This document shows positions 13,363 through 21,635 of a stretch of DNA of 64,000 bases, piece after piece (within the stretch, counting starts at the first letter, position 1; each line of letters opens with the position of its first letter). The stretch is from Acidobacteriota bacterium (lineage in GTDB: Bacteria > Acidobacteriota > Blastocatellia > Pyrinomonadales > Pyrinomonadaceae). A program made the position numbers and the translations under genes. The notes below the pieces were generated by a model. That model had not been told where the DNA came from. It was given only the letters and a program-made list of their open reading frames with translations, and made no database searches. The stretch lies in NCBI GenBank assembly GCA_046733695.1, contig JBKPPU010000273.1, positions 2,085-66,084 on the forward strand, in the 5' to 3' direction.

Positions 13363-15855
13363 TTACCGGGCGCGTTGGCCGATCTGTTCGGTGCCGAAGC
13401 TGCCGATGCCGTTCAGTCGAAACGCAAAAACGACACGATTCTCTTTTCGCAGGCCCACGTTGAAACTCGAAAACTGCGCCGTTGCCGCACAACAATCCCA
13501 CGCATGTCCGAGCGTTATCGTCGAACTGATGAGCGAGTTGTCGCCTCTGCCCGGCCGCTTCTGAAAGTCGAAAAAGAAGGACGCTCCACCGTACCAGCCG
13601 CGATCGCGATTGCCGATAAACGCCGATGGACTCCACTGCGATCCCCGCACTGTGCCCGCCTCGAAACCACGCGGATCGGCAAACTGCGCGAGGTCAGGTG
13701 TGAGCTGGATCGCACGCGTGTAGTAGAAACTCTGGAAGATCTCGACGATCGACTTTTGTAATCCGAACGTCGTCGATAGCGAGCGCATCTCGAGACTGCG
13801 TGAATCGATGTCGGTCCGAAAATCCACGAAGAGATGTCTTCGCGGGCGATAACGCGCATCGATGTTGACGGGCGAGAAGCGTCGCGGCACGCCGCCGTAC
13901 ACAAACCCCGAAAGCGTATTGATCGGATAAAACTGATTGCGTTGATTCGTCAGCAACGCGCCGCCAAAGAACGGGTCGAAAAAGTATTTCCCGCGCAGCG
14001 TTATCGTCAACGCTTCGTACGGCTGGCTCGACAGCAACGGTTTGCCCTCGTCGTCCATTTCTTTTACAGGCACGTCACTCACGTTTTCAGTCGAGCGTCG
14101 CGTGAAGAAACGGTTGGCGATACCGAATTCGATCTCGTTTGTGTCGGCAATGGCGTCGATGTAATCAAATCGAATAATGCGATCGAAGTTGTTAATGCCC
14201 GCCAGCCTTCGATACGTCACGTACGGCTCGATCACGTGACGGAAAAGGAAATTGCCACCACGTCGAAAGTCCCTCGCAAACGCGGGCGGTCGCACGTCGA
14301 GTTCAAACTCTCCGTAAGACCGCGTCAGGTTGCGGCTCAAAACATCACGCGTGTTCGGATCGAGTGAGTTGGAATAGAAGGTTACTCGTCCCGCGCCCGA
14401 AGCCGTAATATTCCAGCCGGCAAAGCTCAGCGGTAACTCGAATCGCGGATGCAGATCGAGTCGCTGCACGATCGAGGGCGTGATAATCGCATTGCCCCCG
14501 ACGTCACTCACAAACTGCACCGCGTCTTCAACAGTCTCTTTCCGGCTCACACCGTCGGCAGAACCACTGAAAGAAAAATACAGGGGCAGCTTCTTGAAGA
14601 AACTCACAATGGCGGGACGCTTGTCGATGCTGATACTCGGCAACTGGCGGATACGAATACGTGCCGCCGCGAGCGACGTTACCTGCGTGCGTGCGAGAAA
14701 GTTAAAGCTGTACTCGTTGTAGTCCTTGTTTATGAAAACCTGTGAAGTCTCTTCCGGCGAGATGGCTTGTTGAATGTTGTCGGAGAACACCTGCCGGAAA
14801 GCGAGGTTCGAAGTGATGTTTACGTCTGCTACCGCTATGAAACCGTTTTTGAAGTAATGAACGCCGTCTACATAAAGACTCGAACCACCTTGATCCGGAT
14901 GAGCGTCATCGGCGGATGGACCAAAGATGCGATCCTTGACGGCGTAGAATCCGACGTTGAGATAGGAGCGCGAGTTGGCACGCGTGCGCAGGTCACCGCC
15001 GAAACCAAGGCCACGCTGCGTATAGATGTCGTTTCGGAAGGTGAAATCGGCCGAACGACCGAGGGTTAAATAGTAGCCGTTCGATAAACGAAGGCCCTTC
15101 GCGCCCGAACCCCCAAACGTCGGCGTCAAAAACCCCGAAGCGCGATCGCGAGTCTTAATTGAAACTGAAGCATACGGCAGGAAGAAGACGGGAACGTTTT
15201 TCAGCTTCAGCTTTGGTCCATAGACGTAAACGCGGTCTCCGGTTTTGATTCGCGTCTTGCTCGCGTGAAAACTCCACTTGGGAACGTCTTCGTCACAGGC
15301 AGTTACCTGAACGTTCGTCGCGATGATCGTGTCGAGACTGATCTTCTCGACGCGATCCGCAGTGAAATAAATGCGCGTACCGTCCTGAGTCTGATTTGTA
15401 TAACCGGTGGAGTCGACGAAGTAACCGGTCTTAGTGCGATAGTTCCACTCGCCACGCGATCCCGTGATGCGCTGCTGGTCCGCCTGATCGAAAACGACGT
15501 TACCTTCCGCGACTGCTCTGTTTTCGGCGGTGTAAACGGTGACCTTGTCTGCCTGCAAACGGTAAGTGCCGATGCGAATGTCGACGTTGCCTTCGTAGAC
15601 GACGACGCGCGCGTCCTCAGGGCCGGAACCGTTCTCCTTCGCAGCCGCAACCTTGATCTCGTCGGTAGCGACGCCCTGCACGCCACCTTGCGTCCGGCGC
15701 GGACGCTGCACGGGTTGATCCGTATTAAGAGGATTGACGTTGGGAGTATCCGTCATCGGATTCGCGACTTTGCGATCGACCGGATTGGTTTGCTGCGCGA
15801 ATACAAACTGGCAAGCAAATAGGAGAGTTATGATAGCCAGTAGATAACGGATCAT
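13363..15855 (-). CDS. lptD: LPS-assembly outer membrane protein LptD (OstA family)
   Basis: Signal peptide MIRYLLAIITLLFACQFVFAQ, an OstA-like N-terminal domain (ADKVTVYTAENRAVAEGNVVFDQ...), and a large beta-barrel-like C-terminus. The ORF-track 5' extension to 15957 is encoded by a family B repeat and was rejected. Confidence 0.8.
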   Translation of the reverse strand: MIRYLLAIITLLFACQFVFAQQTNPVDRKVANPMTDTPNVNPLNTDQPVQRPRRTQGGVQGVATDEIKVAAAKENGSGPEDARVVVYEGNVDIRIGTYRLQADKVTVYTAENRAVAEGNVVFDQADQQRITGSRGEWNYRTKTGYFVDSTGYTNQTQDGTRIYFTADRVEKISLDTIIATNVQVTACDEDVPKWSFHASKTRIKTGDRVYVYGPKLKLKNVPVFFLPYASVSIKTRDRASGFLTPTFGGSGAKGLRLSNGYYLTLGRSADFTFRNDIYTQRGLGFGGDLRTRANSRSYLNVGFYAVKDRIFGPSADDAHPDQGGSSLYVDGVHYFKNGFIAVADVNITSNLAFRQVFSDNIQQAISPEETSQVFINKDYNEYSFNFLARTQVTSLAAARIRIRQLPSISIDKRPAIVSFFKKLPLYFSFSGSADGVSRKETVEDAVQFVSDVGGNAIITPSIVQRLDLHPRFELPLSFAGWNITASGAGRVTFYSNSLDPNTRDVLSRNLTRSYGEFELDVRPPAFARDFRRGGNFLFRHVIEPYVTYRRLAGINNFDRIIRFDYIDAIADTNEIEFGIANRFFTRRSTENVSDVPVKEMDDEGKPLLSSQPYEALTITLRGKYFFDPFFGGALLTNQRNQFYPINTLSGFVYGGVPRRFSPVNIDARYRPRRHLFVDFRTDIDSRSLEMRSLSTTFGLQKSIVEIFQSFYYTRAIQLTPDLAQFADPRGFEAGTVRGSQWSPSAFIGNRDRGWYGGASFFFDFQKRPGRGDNSLISSTITLGHAWDCCAATAQFSSFNVGLRKENRVVFAFRLNGIGSFGTEQIGQRAR

Positions 15856-15892
15856 ATTTATGTGGCGCGTGGATGCTAGCACGAAAATGGAA

Positions 15893-15920
15893 TAGGTCCT
15901 ATAAGTCGTATATGACCTAT
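15893..15920. repeat. Family B repeat (taggtcctata... element)
   Basis: taggtcctataagtcgtatatgacctat. Related copies lie at 17062-17090 and 48767-48795. Confidence 0.75.
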
Positions 15921-15940
15921 GGTCTGGTATCATCCGCGCC

Positions 15941-17065
15941 GTGTGCAAGCGACACAAACTGATGATCGTTGCCGGTGAGCCGTCGGGTGATGCTCACGCT
16001 GCAGCGCTTGTCAAAGCGCTTCGTGAACGCGGCGAATTTGATCTCTTCGGCGCGACCGGGCCGTTGATGCGTGAGGCCGGTGTCGAGACAATCGTCAACT
16101 CGGACGAACTCGCGATCATGGGAATCGTCGAGGTCGGGCGCGTCTTCCAAAAATTCATCAAAGCGTTTCGCAAACTCAAAGCTGCAGCAATCGAACAATC
16201 GCCAGATGCAGTTGTCCTCGTTGACTGGCCGGAATTCAATCTTCGACTGGCGTCGAGTCTGCATCGTCGCGGCTTGAAGGTGATCTATTACATCAGTCCT
16301 CAACTTTGGGCGTGGCGCCCGCGCCGGATTCGCAACATCAAACGCGACGTAGATCTGCTGTTGTCGATCCTGCCGTTTGAAGCTGATTGGTACAAAGCGC
16401 GAGGCGTGGACCACGTCGAATTTGTCGGACATCCCTTATCAGGAGAAGTGAAAGCGCGTTTTGGACGCGAGGAGTTTTGCCGTCGCAACGATCTCGATCC
16501 GGCGCGGCCGATTGTTTCTTTCCTGCCAGGCAGCAGGATAAAGGAATTGGAGCGAATTCTGCCGCCGATGCTCGCGGCGATCGATCAACTTCGCGCGATA
16601 CGACCTGACGTCCAGCCAATTGTTGTGGTCGCTCCGAGCCGCAGCATCAGAGAGGTTCGAGAGAGTATGGCGACCAACGTCAAACTAATCGAACAACAAA
16701 CTCGCGAAGCACTCGCGGCTTGCGACGTGGCGGCAGTCGCCAGTGGCACTGCGACACTCGAAGCAGCGCTACTCGAAACGCCGATGGTGGTTGTTTACAA
16801 AGAGTCGCCAATCAACTGGCACACGCTCGGGCGTTTGATCACCGTGGAGCATTACGGCCTGGTAAACCTCGTGGCGGAACGAGAGATTGCGAAAGAACTG
16901 ATGCAGGATGAACTCACGGGTGAGAACCTGGCGAACGAACTGCTCCAGTTGCTCGAACCCAAAATTAATAAAGGAATGCGGGAGAGTTTGCGCGATGTGG
17001 CCCATCGGTTGGGTGAACCTGGCGCCTCTCAGCGAGCCGCAGCGCAGATCCTTAAGTTGGTATAG
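15941..17065 (+). CDS. lpxB: Lipid-A-disaccharide synthase
   Basis: LMIVAGEPSGDAHAAALVKAL opening and overall LpxB-like sequence. The start is either GTG 15941 or ATG 15962. Confidence 0.9.
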   Translation: MCKRHKLMIVAGEPSGDAHAAALVKALRERGEFDLFGATGPLMREAGVETIVNSDELAIMGIVEVGRVFQKFIKAFRKLKAAAIEQSPDAVVLVDWPEFNLRLASSLHRRGLKVIYYISPQLWAWRPRRIRNIKRDVDLLLSILPFEADWYKARGVDHVEFVGHPLSGEVKARFGREEFCRRNDLDPARPIVSFLPGSRIKELERILPPMLAAIDQLRAIRPDVQPIVVVAPSRSIREVRESMATNVKLIEQQTREALAACDVAAVASGTATLEAALLETPMVVVYKESPINWHTLGRLITVEHYGLVNLVAEREIAKELMQDELTGENLANELLQLLEPKINKGMRESLRDVAHRLGEPGASQRAAAQILKLV

Positions 17066-17090
17066 GTCCTATAGGACATATACGACCTAT
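17062..17090. repeat. Family B repeat containing the 12-bp palindrome gtcctataggac
   Basis: ataggtcctataggacatatacgacctat, between convergent lpxB and lpxD. Confidence 0.75.
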
Positions 17091-18109
17091 ATCTTCTTCT
17101 TCAGCTCTTCAATCTCCGCATTAAGGCGCTTGATCTCCTCGTGCATCTGCGGCAGGCGGTTCATGTGAGCGTTCATGCGTTTGTATTGATCGAGCGGCTG
17201 CACGGGAATTCCCCACCAAACGCCTGGTCGCACGATCTTGCCCGGTAAGATTCCGGCTTTCGATCCGATCACAGCGCCCTTCTGCACTCGCGTGTGATCT
17301 CCAAAACCGACCTGCCCGCCAATCACTGCATCGTCTTCAATCACCACACTGCCGCTAATCCCTGTTTGCGCCGCAATCACGACACGCTCGCCGATGTCGC
17401 AGTTGTGACCAACGTGGACCATATTGTCGAGCTTCGTGCCACGACCGATTCGCGTTCGTCCGAGCGCGGCGCGATCCACACAACTGTATGCGCCAATGTC
17501 GACGTCGTCTTCGATCACCACCGTTCCGACCTGCGGAAACTTCTGATAACCGAGTTCGTGCCGCACGTATCCAAACCCATCCGCGCCAAGACAAACTCCC
17601 GCGTGCAATATCACACGAGTTCCAATCGACACGCCGTCGTACAGAACAACGTTGGGATGCAGCACACAATCATCGCCAACCGTCACATTCGCGCCCAAAA
17701 CCACACCCGGTTCGAGCCTCGTATAACCGCCCACATGCGTGTGCTCACCGACGCAAACATTTGGACCAACATATGCGGTGAGCGCAATGTCGGCAGTTTC
17801 AGCAACAACCGCCGTCGGATGAATTGTTGGTTCGCGACGCACCGCCGGATAAAGCGCAGCGCCCACCAAAGCAAACGCAAGCTTCGGATTGGCAACGACG
17901 ATCAACGTTCGATCCGCGAACTCAACGCCATCGCGCACAATCAAGCACGACGCTTTACTCTCCGCGGCCGCGTCAAACAACTTCTCATTGTCGACGTACG
18001 CAATCTCGCCCTCACGCGCCTGGTCCAGATCGGCAATCCGTTCGATCCGCGTTCCCGCGTCGCCAACCACACGACCACTCACGACACTAGCGAGTTCCTG
18101 TACTCTCAT
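17087..18109 (-). CDS. lpxD: UDP-3-O-acylglucosamine N-acyltransferase
   Basis: 340 aa with left-handed beta-helix hexapeptide repeats and an LpxD-like N-terminal domain (LASVVSGRVVGD...IERIADLDQAREGEIAYV). Its start overlaps the lpxA stop in an ATGA. Confidence 0.9.
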   Translation of the reverse strand: MRVQELASVVSGRVVGDAGTRIERIADLDQAREGEIAYVDNEKLFDAAAESKASCLIVRDGVEFADRTLIVVANPKLAFALVGAALYPAVRREPTIHPTAVVAETADIALTAYVGPNVCVGEHTHVGGYTRLEPGVVLGANVTVGDDCVLHPNVVLYDGVSIGTRVILHAGVCLGADGFGYVRHELGYQKFPQVGTVVIEDDVDIGAYSCVDRAALGRTRIGRGTKLDNMVHVGHNCDIGERVVIAAQTGISGSVVIEDDAVIGGQVGFGDHTRVQKGAVIGSKAGILPGKIVRPGVWWGIPVQPLDQYKRMNAHMNRLPQMHEEIKRLNAEIEELKKKI

Positions 18110-18825
18110 CTTTCAGCTCTCACGAATCCGCGCTTAGAGCCACGAATGAAATTCACCAGGTGGACCACATGCTCGTCTTCAAGCTCGTCGAGCGTTTGCA
18201 AAGCATTCTGAAGCGGCAATGCCGATCGAAACAGAATGCGATACGCATCCTTCAACGCGCGTCTCTCGTCTTCATTGAAGCCACTGCGTCGCAACCCGAC
18301 ACTATTGACACCACGCACGCGCGGCGGATTACCGTCAGTGATAAAAAACGGTAACACATCCTGCACGATCTTTGACTTCCCGCCAATCATTGCATGACGG
18401 CCCATGCGCACAAATTGGTGCGCGCCAACACCGTTGGAAAGAAAAACGTGATCCTCGATCGTGATGTGACCAGCCAGCGCCACTTCGTTCGCAAAGATAT
18501 TATCGTCGCCAATGACGCAGTTGTGCGCGACGTGTACTCCCACCATGAAAAAGTTGCGCGAACCTACGCGAGTCGTCTCTCCTTCTCCATTGGCCCGGTG
18601 AAGCGTGCAAAACTCCCGAACGATATTGTCGTCCCCGATCTCGAGGTAGCTCGTCTCGCCTTTAAACTTCACATCCTGTGGCTCGCCGCCAATAACCGCG
18701 TGCTCGAAGATGCGATTCCGGGCACCGAGACGCGTAAATCGCTTGATAACGGAATAAGCCCCGATCTCGCAATTCGGGCCGATTTCGACGTGATCCTCGA
18801 TGATGGCGGTGGGGTGAATTGACAT
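18106..18825 (-). CDS. lpxA: Acyl-ACP--UDP-N-acetylglucosamine O-acyltransferase
   Basis: MSIHPTAIIEDHVEIGPNCEIG... hexapeptide repeats, plus an LpxA-type C-terminal helical domain (GLRRSGFNEDERRALKDAYRILFRS). Confidence 0.9.
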   Translation of the reverse strand: MSIHPTAIIEDHVEIGPNCEIGAYSVIKRFTRLGARNRIFEHAVIGGEPQDVKFKGETSYLEIGDDNIVREFCTLHRANGEGETTRVGSRNFFMVGVHVAHNCVIGDDNIFANEVALAGHITIEDHVFLSNGVGAHQFVRMGRHAMIGGKSKIVQDVLPFFITDGNPPRVRGVNSVGLRRSGFNEDERRALKDAYRILFRSALPLQNALQTLDELEDEHVVHLVNFIRGSKRGFVRAER

Positions 18826-18828
18826 TTC

Positions 18829-18904
18829 TTTACAGTATTTCCTGAATTTACAAGATTTTCAGGATAATCGCGTCTTGTGGATCCTGCAAATCCTGTTTAT
18901 CATG
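18829..18904. repeat. Family C repeat filling the lpxA / radical SAM divergent intergenic region
   Basis: ...caagattttcaggat...ggatcctgcaaatcctgtttatca. It shares the caagattNtNagga and aatcctgt motifs with 21627-21698 and 59587-59654. Confidence 0.75.
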
Positions 18905-20916
18905 CTCGGCTGTTTGTGGGGTTTAGTATCTGGAGGGACCAAAAGCCGTTGTTTAGTGATCAGTTTCGCCGCGGGGAATCAGATAAAAGCAAGTTATCGG
19001 GAGTAAAAAGCTCCCGGCTGATCTCCGGTCTCTCGGATGTCGCGTGGCGCGCGTTTCAGTCAGTCAACCAGCGGCTGCCGGAAGGTGAAGCGATTCGGCC
19101 CAACTGGGCTCCGGGTCCGCTTCTCAAATCCTACGAACGCACTGCTCCACCACTCGGGTTCCCACGCGAAACCGACAGTCTTTGTCCAACCTGCGTAAAA
19201 GAAGTTCGCAATGCTGTGATCACCGGCGCGGTGCCGCTCGAAACGCTGATGCACGAGCACCCCGGTGAAATCAAGGCGCAGATCGTCGAAGACAACGGAC
19301 AGGTCGTGATGAAAAAGACTTGTCCGAAGCATGGAGAATTCGAAGACGTGATGTCGACCGATCCCGCTTTTCTGGAAAGGATCGAATCACTCTTCTTTGG
19401 ACGTGACTTCCGTGCCGCCGAAGACAAAGACGTCCACAAGCATGGAACGTCGAACATAAAGTTTGGACGTGGCGCTGTTTTGACTGTCGACCTGACGAAC
19501 CGCTGCAACATGATGTGCAATCCGTGCTTCATGGATGCGAATCAGGTTGGCTATGTTCACGAGCCCACGTTTGAAGACACCAAAGCGATTCTCGATCGTG
19601 CTGTCTCCTTTAAACCACGACGTCAGGTAATCATTCTCTTCTCCGGCGGCGAGCCAACACTTTCGCCTTACTACCTTGACGCAGTCGCATACGCGAAGAA
19701 GATCGGTTTCTATCGAATTCTCGCAGCGACCAACGGCATTCGTTTCGCCGAAGATCTCGAATTCTGCAAAGCGGCCAAAGCTGCTGGACAACACGGCGTC
19801 TATTTACAGTTCGACGGAGTCAGCGAAGAGAAGAACAAGCATCGTGGTGTCGGCAACTTGTTCGACGTCAAATTGCGTGCGATTGAGAATCTCGCTGAAG
19901 CTGGTATCAAAGTCACACTCGTCGTCACCATCGTCAACAATCTCAACAACGACGGCATCGGACAAATCGTTGAGTTTGCAGCGAAGAACATCGACAAGGT
20001 GCAGACGATCGCATTCCAGCCGGTTTCCTTCACCGGACGCGACGAAGACATTTCTGACGAGCTGCGCAAGAAGTGGCGCTACACGCTCGCGGGCATGACA
20101 CACGATCTGAAGAATCAGCTCGGTGGTCACATTCAACCGCTGCGCGACTGGTTCCCGCTCTCGTCCTACTCGGCTTTCACGAGCGTGATGGACATGTTGC
20201 AGGGCGCTGATGCCCCGTGGGGCTGGTCGTCGTGCAATTGTCACCCGAACTGCGGCATCTTCACGCTTCTGGTCGTAAACAAGAACACCGGTGAATTCAA
20301 ATCGTTGTTTGAATTCTTCAACTACGAACAGTTTATGAAAGACGTGGCGGTGATCACCGACACGGCACGCGGTCGCAAACTCTCTTACGCGCAACTCGGC
20401 ATGGCGATCATGCGAAACTTCAGCGCTGAGCGAGCGCCGGAGGGATTTCCGATCTCGCAGATCATCAACCTGTTCAAGCCGTCGTCAACCAATTCCAATT
20501 CCGATCGTAACGACCGCATGGCCCAGAAGACTGCTGATGCAAACGATAACTGGCGCGTGCTCTGCGTCGAGGGAATGTGGTTTCAGGATCTCTTTAATTA
20601 CGATTTTCGTCGTACTGAGATGTGCGTAATTCCCTACGGCACTCAGGAAGGCGAGATCTCCTTCTGCGCATACAACACGGGCGTTGGCTGGCGCCAGATC
20701 ATCGAGAACATGCACAAGACCGCGGGCCTGGCCGAGTGGTATGAAGAGCATGGCCGGCACAAGGTCTATGCCGCGGGCAAGCCGGTGCCGTTAACAACAA
20801 CCAAACATTCCTTGAGTCTGCCGGTTATTCAGGCTGTATTGGCGGAGGACGCCGAAGACAAGCCGGTTCATGTAAGTCCTTATCTTCTGGAAGACGAAGA
20901 GACGGTTTCTGTTTAG
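18877..20916 (+). CDS. Radical SAM protein resembling tetraether/membrane-spanning lipid synthase (Tes / GDGT-MAS family)
   Basis: N-terminal Cys pairs (SLCPTC ... KKTCPKHGEFED), radical SAM motif CNMMCNPCF, and further Cys clusters (SSCNCHPNCG; MCVIPYG...ISFCAYN). The true start is uncertain because the first codons of the ORF lie inside the family C repeat. Confidence 0.55.
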   Translation: MDPANPVYHARLFVGFSIWRDQKPLFSDQFRRGESDKSKLSGVKSSRLISGLSDVAWRAFQSVNQRLPEGEAIRPNWAPGPLLKSYERTAPPLGFPRETDSLCPTCVKEVRNAVITGAVPLETLMHEHPGEIKAQIVEDNGQVVMKKTCPKHGEFEDVMSTDPAFLERIESLFFGRDFRAAEDKDVHKHGTSNIKFGRGAVLTVDLTNRCNMMCNPCFMDANQVGYVHEPTFEDTKAILDRAVSFKPRRQVIILFSGGEPTLSPYYLDAVAYAKKIGFYRILAATNGIRFAEDLEFCKAAKAAGQHGVYLQFDGVSEEKNKHRGVGNLFDVKLRAIENLAEAGIKVTLVVTIVNNLNNDGIGQIVEFAAKNIDKVQTIAFQPVSFTGRDEDISDELRKKWRYTLAGMTHDLKNQLGGHIQPLRDWFPLSSYSAFTSVMDMLQGADAPWGWSSCNCHPNCGIFTLLVVNKNTGEFKSLFEFFNYEQFMKDVAVITDTARGRKLSYAQLGMAIMRNFSAERAPEGFPISQIINLFKPSSTNSNSDRNDRMAQKTADANDNWRVLCVEGMWFQDLFNYDFRRTEMCVIPYGTQEGEISFCAYNTGVGWRQIIENMHKTAGLAEWYEEHGRHKVYAAGKPVPLTTTKHSLSLPVIQAVLAEDAEDKPVHVSPYLLEDEETVSV

Positions 20917-21044: not shown

Positions 21045-21635
21045 ATGACCAAACTCTTGTCTATTGTTCTCATGCTGACGATCAGCATGGGTGTAGTTGC
21101 CTTTCCAACCTTTCAGGATCCTAAACCCGAAACAGTTCGGGCGACTCCGCCAGCCGACGGTATGGTAACTGTCCCGGACGGAACGGAGATCGAGATTCAG
21201 TTGAAAACAAACGCGTCTGGAGAAGAGCTCAAGATCGGCGACATTGTCGACTTTGTCGTAGTGAGGCCGGTCCAGGTAAACGGACTGACGATCTTTGAAA
21301 AGGAAGCAGCAGGCAGAGCACGTATCACCACGGCGAAGCGAGCTGGTCACTGGGGCCATGCAGGAAAACTGGAGTGGGCCATGCAGGATGTTATGGCTGC
21401 TGACGGTAACCGCATTCCGGCGAGATTTACGAAACGGAAGGTTGGCGACAGTAAAGGCGGGACTGTTGCAGTGGCGGCAGTCGCGACGACCGTTTTCCTT
21501 GGACCAGTTGGTCTATTGTGGGGTCTGAAGAAAGGCAAGCCGGCGATCATCCCCGCGGGCAATCGCTACAGCGTGTTCGTCGCCGGCGATACGAAGATTA
21601 AAGGAAAGCCGGTTGAAGTCAGTTCACAGGATTAA
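21045..21635 (+). CDS. Secreted/membrane-associated hypothetical protein
   Basis: GGAG-N8-ATG, signal-like N-terminus MTKLLSIVLMLTISMGVVAF, and a hydrophobic segment near the C-terminus (VAVAAVATTVFLGPVGLLWG). Confidence 0.5.
   Translation: MTKLLSIVLMLTISMGVVAFPTFQDPKPETVRATPPADGMVTVPDGTEIEIQLKTNASGEELKIGDIVDFVVVRPVQVNGLTIFEKEAAGRARITTAKRAGHWGHAGKLEWAMQDVMAADGNRIPARFTKRKVGDSKGGTVAVAAVATTVFLGPVGLLWGLKKGKPAIIPAGNRYSVFVAGDTKIKGKPVEVSSQD

Follow-up and report, generated by a model that had tools for sequence, protein, structure and literature searches.

To judge from its sequence and its modelled structure, the protein encoded on the forward strand at 18949..20916 is a divergent relative, and not an equivalog, within the Tes/GDGT-MAS superfamily of radical SAM enzymes. 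The gene lies in a stretch of 64,000 nucleotides from the genome of a soil bacterium (Acidobacteriota, family Pyrinomonadaceae), and the whole of this stretch is here called the window. On balance, we are inclined to believe that the gene (hereafter, the tes-like gene) encodes a functional lipid-tail coupling enzyme, which most likely would join iso-branched lipid chains tail to tail by radical chemistry. The gene is a candidate, of a kind already published, for the synthesis of iso-diabolic acid lipids, and not a new proposal: as the original prediction correctly stated, bacterial Tes homologues were proposed in 2022 for membrane-spanning lipid synthesis in Acidobacteria (PMC8941075, PMC10087280).

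Branched GDGTs and iso-diabolic acid lipids are the basis of palaeotemperature and pH proxies in wide use. The branch of Tes-like proteins described below, termed here the long form, is the most conserved candidate for chain joining in aerobic Acidobacteria.

Gene product and family assignment

The interval 18877-20916 of the forward strand contains a single long open reading frame (ORF), open over 679 codons from a GTG. The original prediction of a protein of ~680 aa was therefore right as to the reading frame, but the start has been moved. Since orthologues of 655-658 aa begin with M/L-FSDQFRRGES, the most likely start is the TTG at position 18949 (codon 25 of the ORF), preceded by a GGAGG at a distance of 11 nt, which gives a predicted product of 655 aa; the in-frame stretch 18877-18948 is probably untranslated. 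An intergenic region of 123 nt (18826..18948) separates this start from that of the divergent lpxA2 gene. A scan for consensus promoters and terminators around the tes-like gene gave nothing above shuffled expectation, and the divergent intergenic region was empty.

Regarding the family, the Tes model (NF045702) is the best NCBIfam match (E 1.1e-93) and, in a phmmer comparison, archaeal GDGT-MAS (PDB 7TOL) is matched at E 5.7e-64 over residues 132-625, the next match being SkfB at 3e-08; that is, the best hits do not fall in another radical SAM subfamily. The Pfam domains found are PF04055 and PF23545. An AlphaFold model (pTM 0.84, mean pLDDT 75) was matched by Foldseek to 7TOM/7TOL at E 4.6e-31, with a target TM of 0.83 over 544 columns; the remaining matches cover the radical SAM core only, and the C-terminal lipid-pocket domain of the model is matched by GDGT-MAS alone. 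The sequence and the model show homology, a common overall fold and, of the four metal sites of GDGT-MAS, the conservation of three. The family named in the original prediction thus stands in the sense that GDGT-MAS/Tes is the best and sole full-length relative in both sequence and structure, but the protein scores 314.5 bits against a curated NF045702 cut-off of 450 and has no N-terminal [4Fe-4S] motif. These two facts, together with its position in a separate long-form clade, are the reasons for not considering it an equivalog. All four paralogues of the genome fall under the same cut-off; in the same search, three of the 14 named control genomes rise above it.

The cysteine motifs on which that prediction was based were all found in the ORF: CPTC (residues 103-106, in ORF numbering) and CPKH (149-152); CNMMCNPC (210-217); CNCHPNC (453-459); and C583 followed by SFCAYN (595-600). 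Their named residues are invariant in alignments of 12 and of 36 diverse homologues, down to 51% identity, and hence they are not there by chance. The first pair of motifs, C103-x2-C106 ... C149-x2-H152 (19183..19332, forward strand), corresponds to a predicted rubredoxin-like mononuclear iron site and is matched by PF23545 (Zn_ribbon_HMPTM, E 2.9e-15). In the 7TOL alignment, C149 and H152 pair with the ligands C33 and H36 of GDGT-MAS (PMC9433317); the alignment begins after C103 and C106, which were assigned to the C9x2C12 pair via the PF23545 match. The radical SAM cluster motif, C210-x3-C214-x2-C217 (19504..19527, forward strand), is invariant and matched by PF04055 (E 2.4e-22), and the modelled core matches radical SAM structures with their partial TIM barrel.

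The C-terminal auxiliary-cluster and lipid-pocket domain (20233..20676, forward strand) was delimited by the 7TOL alignment and its invariant columns and lies inside the fold match. Here, C459, C583, C597 and M567, all of them invariant, correspond in 7TOL to the positions HQHCG, RCC, FCTYN and SCMHF, and are the predicted ligands of the C-terminal [4Fe-4S] cluster (three cysteines plus the labile methionine position). In consequence, the middle CxCxxxC and the C-terminal cysteine motif are present as originally described, but by alignment they belong to one auxiliary cluster instead of separate ones. The domain contains two extra conserved cysteines, C453 and C455.

The fourth metal site of GDGT-MAS is an N-terminal auxiliary [4Fe-4S] cluster bound by C73-x3-C77-x2-C80 and a histidine (PMC9433317). 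The segment aligned to it (19423..19473, forward strand; DKDVHKHGTSNIKFGRG) contains no cysteine. Instead, it carries a conserved D-x3-H-x-H-G-[ST]-S, with D183, H187, H189 and G190 invariant, in a part of the model where pLDDT is low. According to the 7TOL alignment and to the representatives compared, this cluster motif is absent from both the window protein and the entire long-form clade. At the other side of the iron site, residues 46-64 (19012..19068, forward strand) form an amphipathic helix, modelled at pLDDT 78-94, with the highest hydrophobic moment of the protein. It sits in an N-terminal extension of ~70 aa which is absent from GDGT-MAS, and the W and N residues of this region are conserved in the family. 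No transmembrane segment was found in the protein, and the helix is a candidate in-plane membrane anchor.

The long-form branch and its proposed reaction

The comparison of the protein with GDGT-MAS/Tes was completed with a phylogeny, as the original prediction had advised. A search of 50% identity cluster representatives gave mostly fragments, and of its 150 representatives the 39 with at least 480 aa were used. The tree places the protein in a bacterial long-form clade, split by a branch with 100% support from the canonical representatives that have the N-terminal cluster, short forms included. The N-cluster motif is kept in most of the representatives at or below 38% identity, and in paralogue D of the host genome. 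As read from these sequences, the long-form branch has lost the surface N-terminal [4Fe-4S] cluster and has gained the amphipathic helix and a C-terminal tail, so that electrons must enter these proteins by another route than in the archaeal enzyme.

Both long and short forms occur in Acidobacteriota. The long-form clade is present in ~65 of the 151 high-quality Acidobacteriota genomes sampled (~43%), including genomes of Blastocatellia, Acidobacteriaceae, Bryobacterales and Vicinamibacterales. It is kept in 31 of 31 sampled relatives of the host, and identity stays above 50% across the phylum. Among the best 80 loci of a contig scan, all from MAGs, it was also found in Holophagales and Thermoanaerobaculia and in several other phyla. 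The long form may be under-counted by searches with archaeal queries; a published screen with stringent criteria reported homologues in only three of 14 iso-diabolic acid producers.

The substrate, the product and the division of roles among the paralogues are inferred, and the mechanism is proposed by analogy with the archaeal enzyme. SAM would be cleaved at the CX3CX2C cluster, and the resulting 5'-deoxyadenosyl radical would take a hydrogen from a lipid chain in the hydrophobic pocket, at its terminal methyl. The substrate radical would then be stored by the C-terminal auxiliary [4Fe-4S] cluster, bound to one of its sulfides, until another chain, activated at its terminal carbon by a second SAM, attacks the sulfur-bound carbon to form a Csp3-Csp3 bond. 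In a Pyrinomonadaceae host, the chains would be of the iso-C15 type (acyl or alkyl), whose terminus is identical to that of a phytanyl chain.

Several observations favour this reaction: (i) in the type genus of the family, membrane-spanning iso-diabolic acid and ether lipids exceed 40% (PMC4644332); (ii) iso-diabolic acid occurs in Acidobacteria of subdivisions 1, 3, 4 and 6 (PMC13159169); and (iii) the host genome carries an elbB/elbD/elbE-like ether-lipid cluster. Against it, a Thermoanaerobacter ethanolicus homologue (24% identical to archaeal Tes) yielded no membrane-spanning lipid in E. coli (preprint 10.1101/2022.04.21.487849), and no bacterial Tes homologue shown to make such a lipid was found in the literature up to 2026. 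The score under the Tes equivalog cut-off and the missing cluster also count against it, as does the fact that carriers of the long form include Holophagales, Thermoanaerobaculia and other phyla without documented iso-diabolic acid. Moreover, a radical SAM enzyme is oxygen-labile, which fits poorly with hosts that are mostly aerobes. Iso-diabolic acid of subdivisions 1 and 3 is not known to be released other than by acid hydrolysis.

Paralogues and the lpx neighbourhood

The host genome contains three long-form paralogues (A, the window copy; B; and C) with 50-54% identity, and the window copy is not the most widely conserved of them. Clade A is monophyletic and occurs mainly in Pyrinomonadaceae and relatives; members of clades B and C are found across the phylum. 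A lineage-restricted copy among three paralogues need not be the main synthase, a point against the preferred reading. The maintenance of the three in one genome, together with the restricted range of clade A, also argues for a division of work in which the window copy carries out a different radical modification: action on another substrate class (ether- versus ester-bound chains), formation of a second C-C bond (trialkyl to dialkyl), or a mid-chain cross-link. [quoted passage not shown] Nevertheless, we regard it as rather unlikely: the catalytic and cluster residues are identical in clades A, B and C, with no sequence sign of different chemistry, and none of the other Blastocatellia families sampled (f3-f7) yielded a clade-A member.

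Non-A long-form genes are essentially stand-alone. In the host genome, paralogue B lies beside genes for a CTP_transf_3 cytidylyltransferase, a 2-hydroxyacid dehydrogenase, a B12-radical SAM protein and a fatty acid desaturase; none of these recurs at B-clade loci elsewhere, and so they were rejected as conserved operon partners. Similarly, the surE gene downstream of C is kept only within the genus. Among 58 neighbours of non-A long-form loci, only B12-binding radical SAM genes were seen more than twice (three to four of ~22 loci).

In the window, as originally predicted and as the coordinates confirm, the tes-like gene is divergent from an lpxA and close to lpxD, lpxB and lptD. Upstream of it lie (i) lpxA2 (18106..18825, reverse strand; TIGR01852, 286.6 bits, cut-off 231), a second and more divergent UDP-GlcNAc acyltransferase paralogue; (ii) lpxD2 (17087..18109, reverse strand; TIGR01853, 312.1 bits, cut-off 242.5), a second LpxD paralogue of the clade linked to clade-A tes; (iii) lpxB (15941..17065, forward strand; PF02684, E 1.8e-89; TIGR00215, 285.7 bits), encoding lipid-A-disaccharide synthase; and (iv) a gene for an LptD-like outer-membrane LPS assembly protein (13363..15957, reverse strand; PF19838 and PF03968). 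The lpxA/lpxD pair of the window is the second, more divergent one of the genome. The canonical genes are on other contigs: lpxA within skp-fabZ-lpxA-lpxI (contig C71; TIGR01852, 327.9 bits; 36% identity to lpxA2), and lpxD on contig C294 (TIGR01853, 381.3 bits; 34% identity to lpxD2). Downstream, a gene at 21045..21635 (forward strand) encodes a small protein that has a signal peptide and, towards its C-terminus, a hydrophobic segment; the gene recurs 3' of clade-A tes in ~15 related loci (tblastn) and has no Pfam or NCBIfam matches.

The linkage of clade-A tes and lpxD2 was an unexpected observation. The two genes adjoin each other, with or without lpxA2, in 33 of ~48 informative loci, and in two arrangements: in the family clade, tes is divergent from lpxA2-lpxD2, and in a distant subclade (65-72% identity) lpxD2 lies 51-256 nt downstream of tes on the same strand. 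No neighbour other than lpxD2 is common to both arrangements. In the LpxD tree, the LpxD proteins encoded next to tes all group in a single paralogue clade, LpxD2, apart from LpxD1; furthermore, no neighbour family other than the lpx genes recurs when all long-form loci are taken together. At one locus (L114), tes and lpxD seemed to overlap by 44 nt, but the ORF had been called too long: the match to the LpxD model begins ~85 nt past the tes stop. LpxD2 turned out not to be exclusive to genomes with clade-A tes.

That the sole conserved neighbour is lpxD2 and not a glycerolipid gene is a further point against the preferred reading, and the linkage raises the question of whether radical tail coupling takes place at the outer membrane too. 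In such a case, the clade-A enzyme could act on lipid A or its precursors, joining the ends of iso-branched 3-hydroxyacyl chains supplied by LpxA2 and LpxD2, within one molecule or between two, to give a cross-linked or macrocyclic outer-membrane lipid A. The GDGT-MAS pocket accepts ester phospholipids (PMC13274423), which is compatible with this substrate. For the intramolecular mode, GDGT-MAS making macrocyclic archaeol is a precedent. We consider this role improbable, and slightly more so the stronger version in which the enzyme is dedicated to the outer membrane and makes, with LpxA2 and LpxD2, an end-to-end C-C-joined iso-acyl lipid A that is macrocyclic or bridges the leaflets. The coupling to lipid A genes suggested by the original prediction gains from the recurrence in two arrangements, but it is drawn from gene order only, and one ancestral adjacency may underlie both. 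Moreover, the linkage is missing in a subclade of 77-81% identity, in several other clade-A loci and throughout clades B and C; there are Blastocatellia genomes that have LpxD2-type genes but no clade-A tes; and a literature search gave no account of lipid A with cross-linked acyl chains. If true, end-joined lipid A would represent a novel type of modification of this molecule and could be a hidden source of iso-diabolic-type diacids in Acidobacteria, released by acid hydrolysis only.

Finally, it is very improbable that the protein shares ancestry with Tes but modifies no lipid, serving instead as a radical SAM maturase of a cofactor or peptide. This reading is favoured by the score under the Tes cut-off, the weaker similarity to TrsS (208.6 bits, cut-off 490) and to NirJ/AhbC-type enzymes, and the former annotation of MJ0619 as a pterin methylase. 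Against it, the full C-terminal lipid-pocket domain is matched by GDGT-MAS only (TM 0.83); the matches to TrsS, NirJ and others either cover just the radical SAM half, to residue ~420, or are far weaker than the Tes match; and the neighbourhood has no precursor peptide or cofactor gene.

Three features offer targets for expression and knockout experiments: the distinction of long and short forms, the lack of the N-terminal cluster in the long form, and the three paralogues present in some lineages.

Comparison with known systems

Archaeal GDGT-MAS/Tes (MJ0619 of M. jannaschii, 7TOL/7TOM; MA_1486 of M. acetivorans; NF045702), which joins a pair of lipid tails to give a single membrane-spanning lipid, shares with the window protein its fold (TM 0.83), the CX2C...CX2H iron site, the radical SAM CX3CX2C motif and the C-terminal cluster ligands, at ~30% identity over ~490 residues. 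But while GDGT-MAS has the N-terminal auxiliary [4Fe-4S] motif (C73, C77, C80 and His), the window protein has D-x3-H-x-H-G instead, as well as an extra N-terminal region of ~70 aa, a C-terminal tail of ~50 aa and two additional conserved cysteines in CxCHPxCG. Besides, its host is a bacterium with fatty-acid lipids and not an archaeon, and hence its substrate cannot be archaeol.

The top hits in Koribacter and Solibacter are 40-42% identical to archaeal Tes (Zeng et al. 2022, PMC8941075). Short-form bacterial homologues (490-590 aa) belong to the same superfamily and are likewise unproven candidates for brGDGT synthesis; they differ from the window protein, to which they are 31-39% identical, in keeping the CPxxCGxC...H N-cluster motif. 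The published Koribacter and Solibacter hits are presumably of this short type.

Among bacterial enzymes, the synthesis of diabolic acids has been shown only for Mss, the membrane-spanning lipid synthase of Thermotoga and Thermoanaerobacter, whose homologue is reported to be absent from Acidobacteria (Sahonero-Canavesi et al. 2022, PMC13159169). Mss belongs to a different radical SAM family and operates in anaerobes; nonetheless, it is a radical SAM enzyme for which a cluster-assisted tail-to-tail coupling has been proposed, as it is proposed here for the window protein.

A full-length Tes/GDGT-MAS homologue

The gene at 18877-20916 (+) is real and intact, and its product is a divergent representative of an already known enzyme superfamily. 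The uninterrupted open reading frame of 679 codons encodes CPTC (residues 103-106), CPKH (149-152), CNMMCNPC (210-217), CNCHPNC (453-459), C583 and SFCAYN (595-600), i.e., all the motifs listed in the original prediction were found in the translated sequence. Pfam recognizes Radical_SAM and the HMPTM/MJ0619 zinc-ribbon domain, and the top NCBIfam model is that of the tetraether synthase Tes (NF045702; E 1.1e-93), with a score of 314.5 bits that lies under the curated cut-off of 450. The only strong PDB match is archaeal GDGT-MAS (7TOL; E 5.7e-64, residues 132-625). An AlphaFold model computed from 36 sequences (pTM 0.84, mean pLDDT 75) matches 7TOM/7TOL (E 4.6e-31, target-normalised TM 0.83), other structure matches being restricted to the radical SAM core. 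Together, these HMM, PDB sequence and fold matches uphold the family originally assigned and, hence, the protein is a full-length Tes/GDGT-MAS homologue, including the C-terminal lipid-pocket domain.

Since close orthologues of 655-658 aa begin with M/L-FSDQFRRGES, the true start is most likely TTG 18949, which is preceded by GGAGG and would give a protein of 655 aa. Downstream (21045-21635, +) lies a gene whose 196-aa product has a signal peptide and, towards its C terminus, a hydrophobic segment. This protein matches no family and recurs directly downstream of tes in about 15 loci of the same clade (clade A).

Long-form phylogeny and paralogues

Among representatives of at least 480 aa from a 1.84-billion-protein library, those with at least 40% identity to the window protein lack the N-cluster motif CPxxCGxC...H, whereas most of those with at most 38% identity retain it. 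The former constitute the long form, which in both trees (FastTree, 163 rows; IQ-TREE with a mixture model, 48 rows) forms a single clade (100% support) that a long branch sets apart from the canonical forms. Tes-like homologues occur in 92 of the 151 sampled high-quality Acidobacteriota genomes: about 64-66 contain the long form (51-100% identity) and about 26 the short, canonical form alone (33-39% identity). Outside the phylum, the best 80 loci listed include long-form genes from MAGs with the labels Latescibacterota, Gemmatimonadales and Polyangia, and from a few labelled as Proteobacteria. B12-binding radical SAM genes, which could encode lipid methylases or ring synthases, adjoin long-form tes at four loci (L122, L128, L138 and L144; MAGs labelled Gemmatimonadales, Latescibacterota and Bryobacterales).

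The host genome, a 7.2-Mb Pyrinomonadaceae assembly (G000), has three long-form genes: (i) A, in the window; (ii) B (contig C104:70429-72441), 52% identical to A; and (iii) C, split between the ends of two contigs with a 227-nt overlap (C193 and C261). Clade A is monophyletic and consists of sequences from Pyrinomonadaceae, their relatives and a few further acidobacterial MAGs, whereas clades B and C are sister groups spread across the phylum; the window gene is thus a lineage-restricted copy. Gene B is oriented divergently from three genes (CTP_transf_3 cytidylyltransferase, 2-hydroxyacid dehydrogenase, GT-like protein; C104:67292-79405), and 4.5 kb away a B12-binding radical SAM gene precedes a fatty acid desaturase gene; none of these neighbours is conserved next to B-clade genes elsewhere. 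Contig ends interrupt gene C in each of two independent assemblies (C193/C261 in G000; C625/C208 in G015), probably through assembly collapse among three similar paralogues, and frameshifted copies in several long-read relatives (G003, G007, G010) look like sequencing errors.

A distant fourth gene, D (516 aa; C122:32000-42181 region, loci L005 and L040), keeps the N-cluster motif. It belongs to a type II FAS/PKS-like cluster comprising a B12-binding radical SAM gene, two or three ketosynthases, two ketoreductases, a FabA-like dehydratase and an ACP. The cluster seems to be a distinct lipid-tailoring pathway, as yet undescribed.

Linkage with a second LpxA/LpxD set

The window gene is flanked, as originally described, by lptD, lpxB, lpxD and a divergent lpxA. 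The called 5' ends of lpxB (+) and lptD (-) share 17 nt (15941-15957), so one start codon was probably set too far upstream. LpxA and LpxD are each encoded twice in the genome, with the canonical copies lying outside the window in a skp-skp-fabZ-lpxA-lpxI cluster (C71:235-3746) and as a stand-alone lpxD (C294:15478-16509). The window products, LpxA2 and LpxD2, are 34-36% identical to them, with equivalog scores below those of the canonical pair yet over the cut-offs. Relative to the LpxA models, the LpxA2 frame starts at position 18-23, its N terminus being about 20 residues shorter than that of the canonical LpxA.

Two LpxD paralogues occur in about 25 of the 31 sampled Blastocatellia genomes, those with a single match being mostly incomplete assemblies. 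In most clade-A loci of at least 83% identity, lpxD2 (with or without lpxA2) is divergently upstream of tes, while in a subclade of 65-72% identity (L054, L109, L111, L113, L114, L121) tes is followed on its own strand, after 51-256 nt, by an LpxD gene; the two arrangements share no neighbour besides lpxD. All tes-adjacent LpxD proteins fall within a single paralogue clade, distinct from the canonical one, and lpx is the sole recurrent neighbour family among the flanking ORFs of 80 related loci; no conserved partner was found beside non-A long-form loci. The functional reading of this linkage is nevertheless weakened because (i) a subclade of 77-81% identity and several other loci lack it; (ii) LpxD2-type genes are also present in relatives without clade A; and (iii) related genomes are not independent samples. 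The linkage is a specific lead that merits one experiment.

Proposed function and comparison with GDGT-MAS

An elbB/elbD/elbE-like ether-lipid cluster is present in the genome (C421:675-7903). It encodes, in order, a Lar_N-domain protein, a 1467-aa multidomain protein (reductase, AMP-ligase, ACP and acyltransferase domains) and an SDR epimerase; the architecture of the second is ElbD-like. Membrane-spanning and ether lipids exceed 40% in Pyrinomonas, the type genus of the family to which the host belongs (PMC4644332). The role suggested for the window gene is already published, unproven: bacterial Tes homologues have indeed been put forward, as the original prediction stated, as synthases of brGDGTs or membrane-spanning lipids (PMC8941075; PMC10087280), and no experimental demonstration was found in the literature up to 2026. 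The proven bacterial synthase, Mss, was not found in Acidobacteria, and under stringent criteria Tes homologues were detected in only 3 of 14 iso-diabolic-acid producers (PMC13159169). In a preprint (10.1101/2022.04.21.487849), a Tes homologue from Thermoanaerobacter showed no activity in E. coli. From these published results, the Pyrinomonas lipids and the elb-like cluster, tail-to-tail coupling of iso-branched chains is the best-supported function, and we attribute it to the window enzyme with moderate confidence. The remaining probability is shared between specialisation among the three paralogues, of which A is the lineage-restricted one, and action on lipid A acyl chains, to which the lpxD2 linkage would point with the weaknesses listed; there is a small chance that the substrate is not a lipid.

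The highest hydrophobic moment within the protein falls in an N-terminal helix (residues 46-64) and no transmembrane segment was found, which agree in fitting a peripheral membrane enzyme. When the GDGT-MAS ligands (PMC9433317) are transferred via a HMMER alignment, the archaeal N-terminal auxiliary cluster (C73-x3-C77-x2-C80 plus His) is missing, its aligned stretch having no cysteine and being occupied by a family-invariant D-x3-H-x-H-G in a region of low model confidence. In contrast, three sites are retained: (i) the rubredoxin-like site (C103, C106, C149, H152); (ii) the radical SAM cluster ligands (C210, C214, C217); and (iii) the C-terminal auxiliary cluster, with C459, C583 and C597 conserved and M567 at the labile-Met position. 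To these, the window protein adds two invariant cysteines, C453 and C455.
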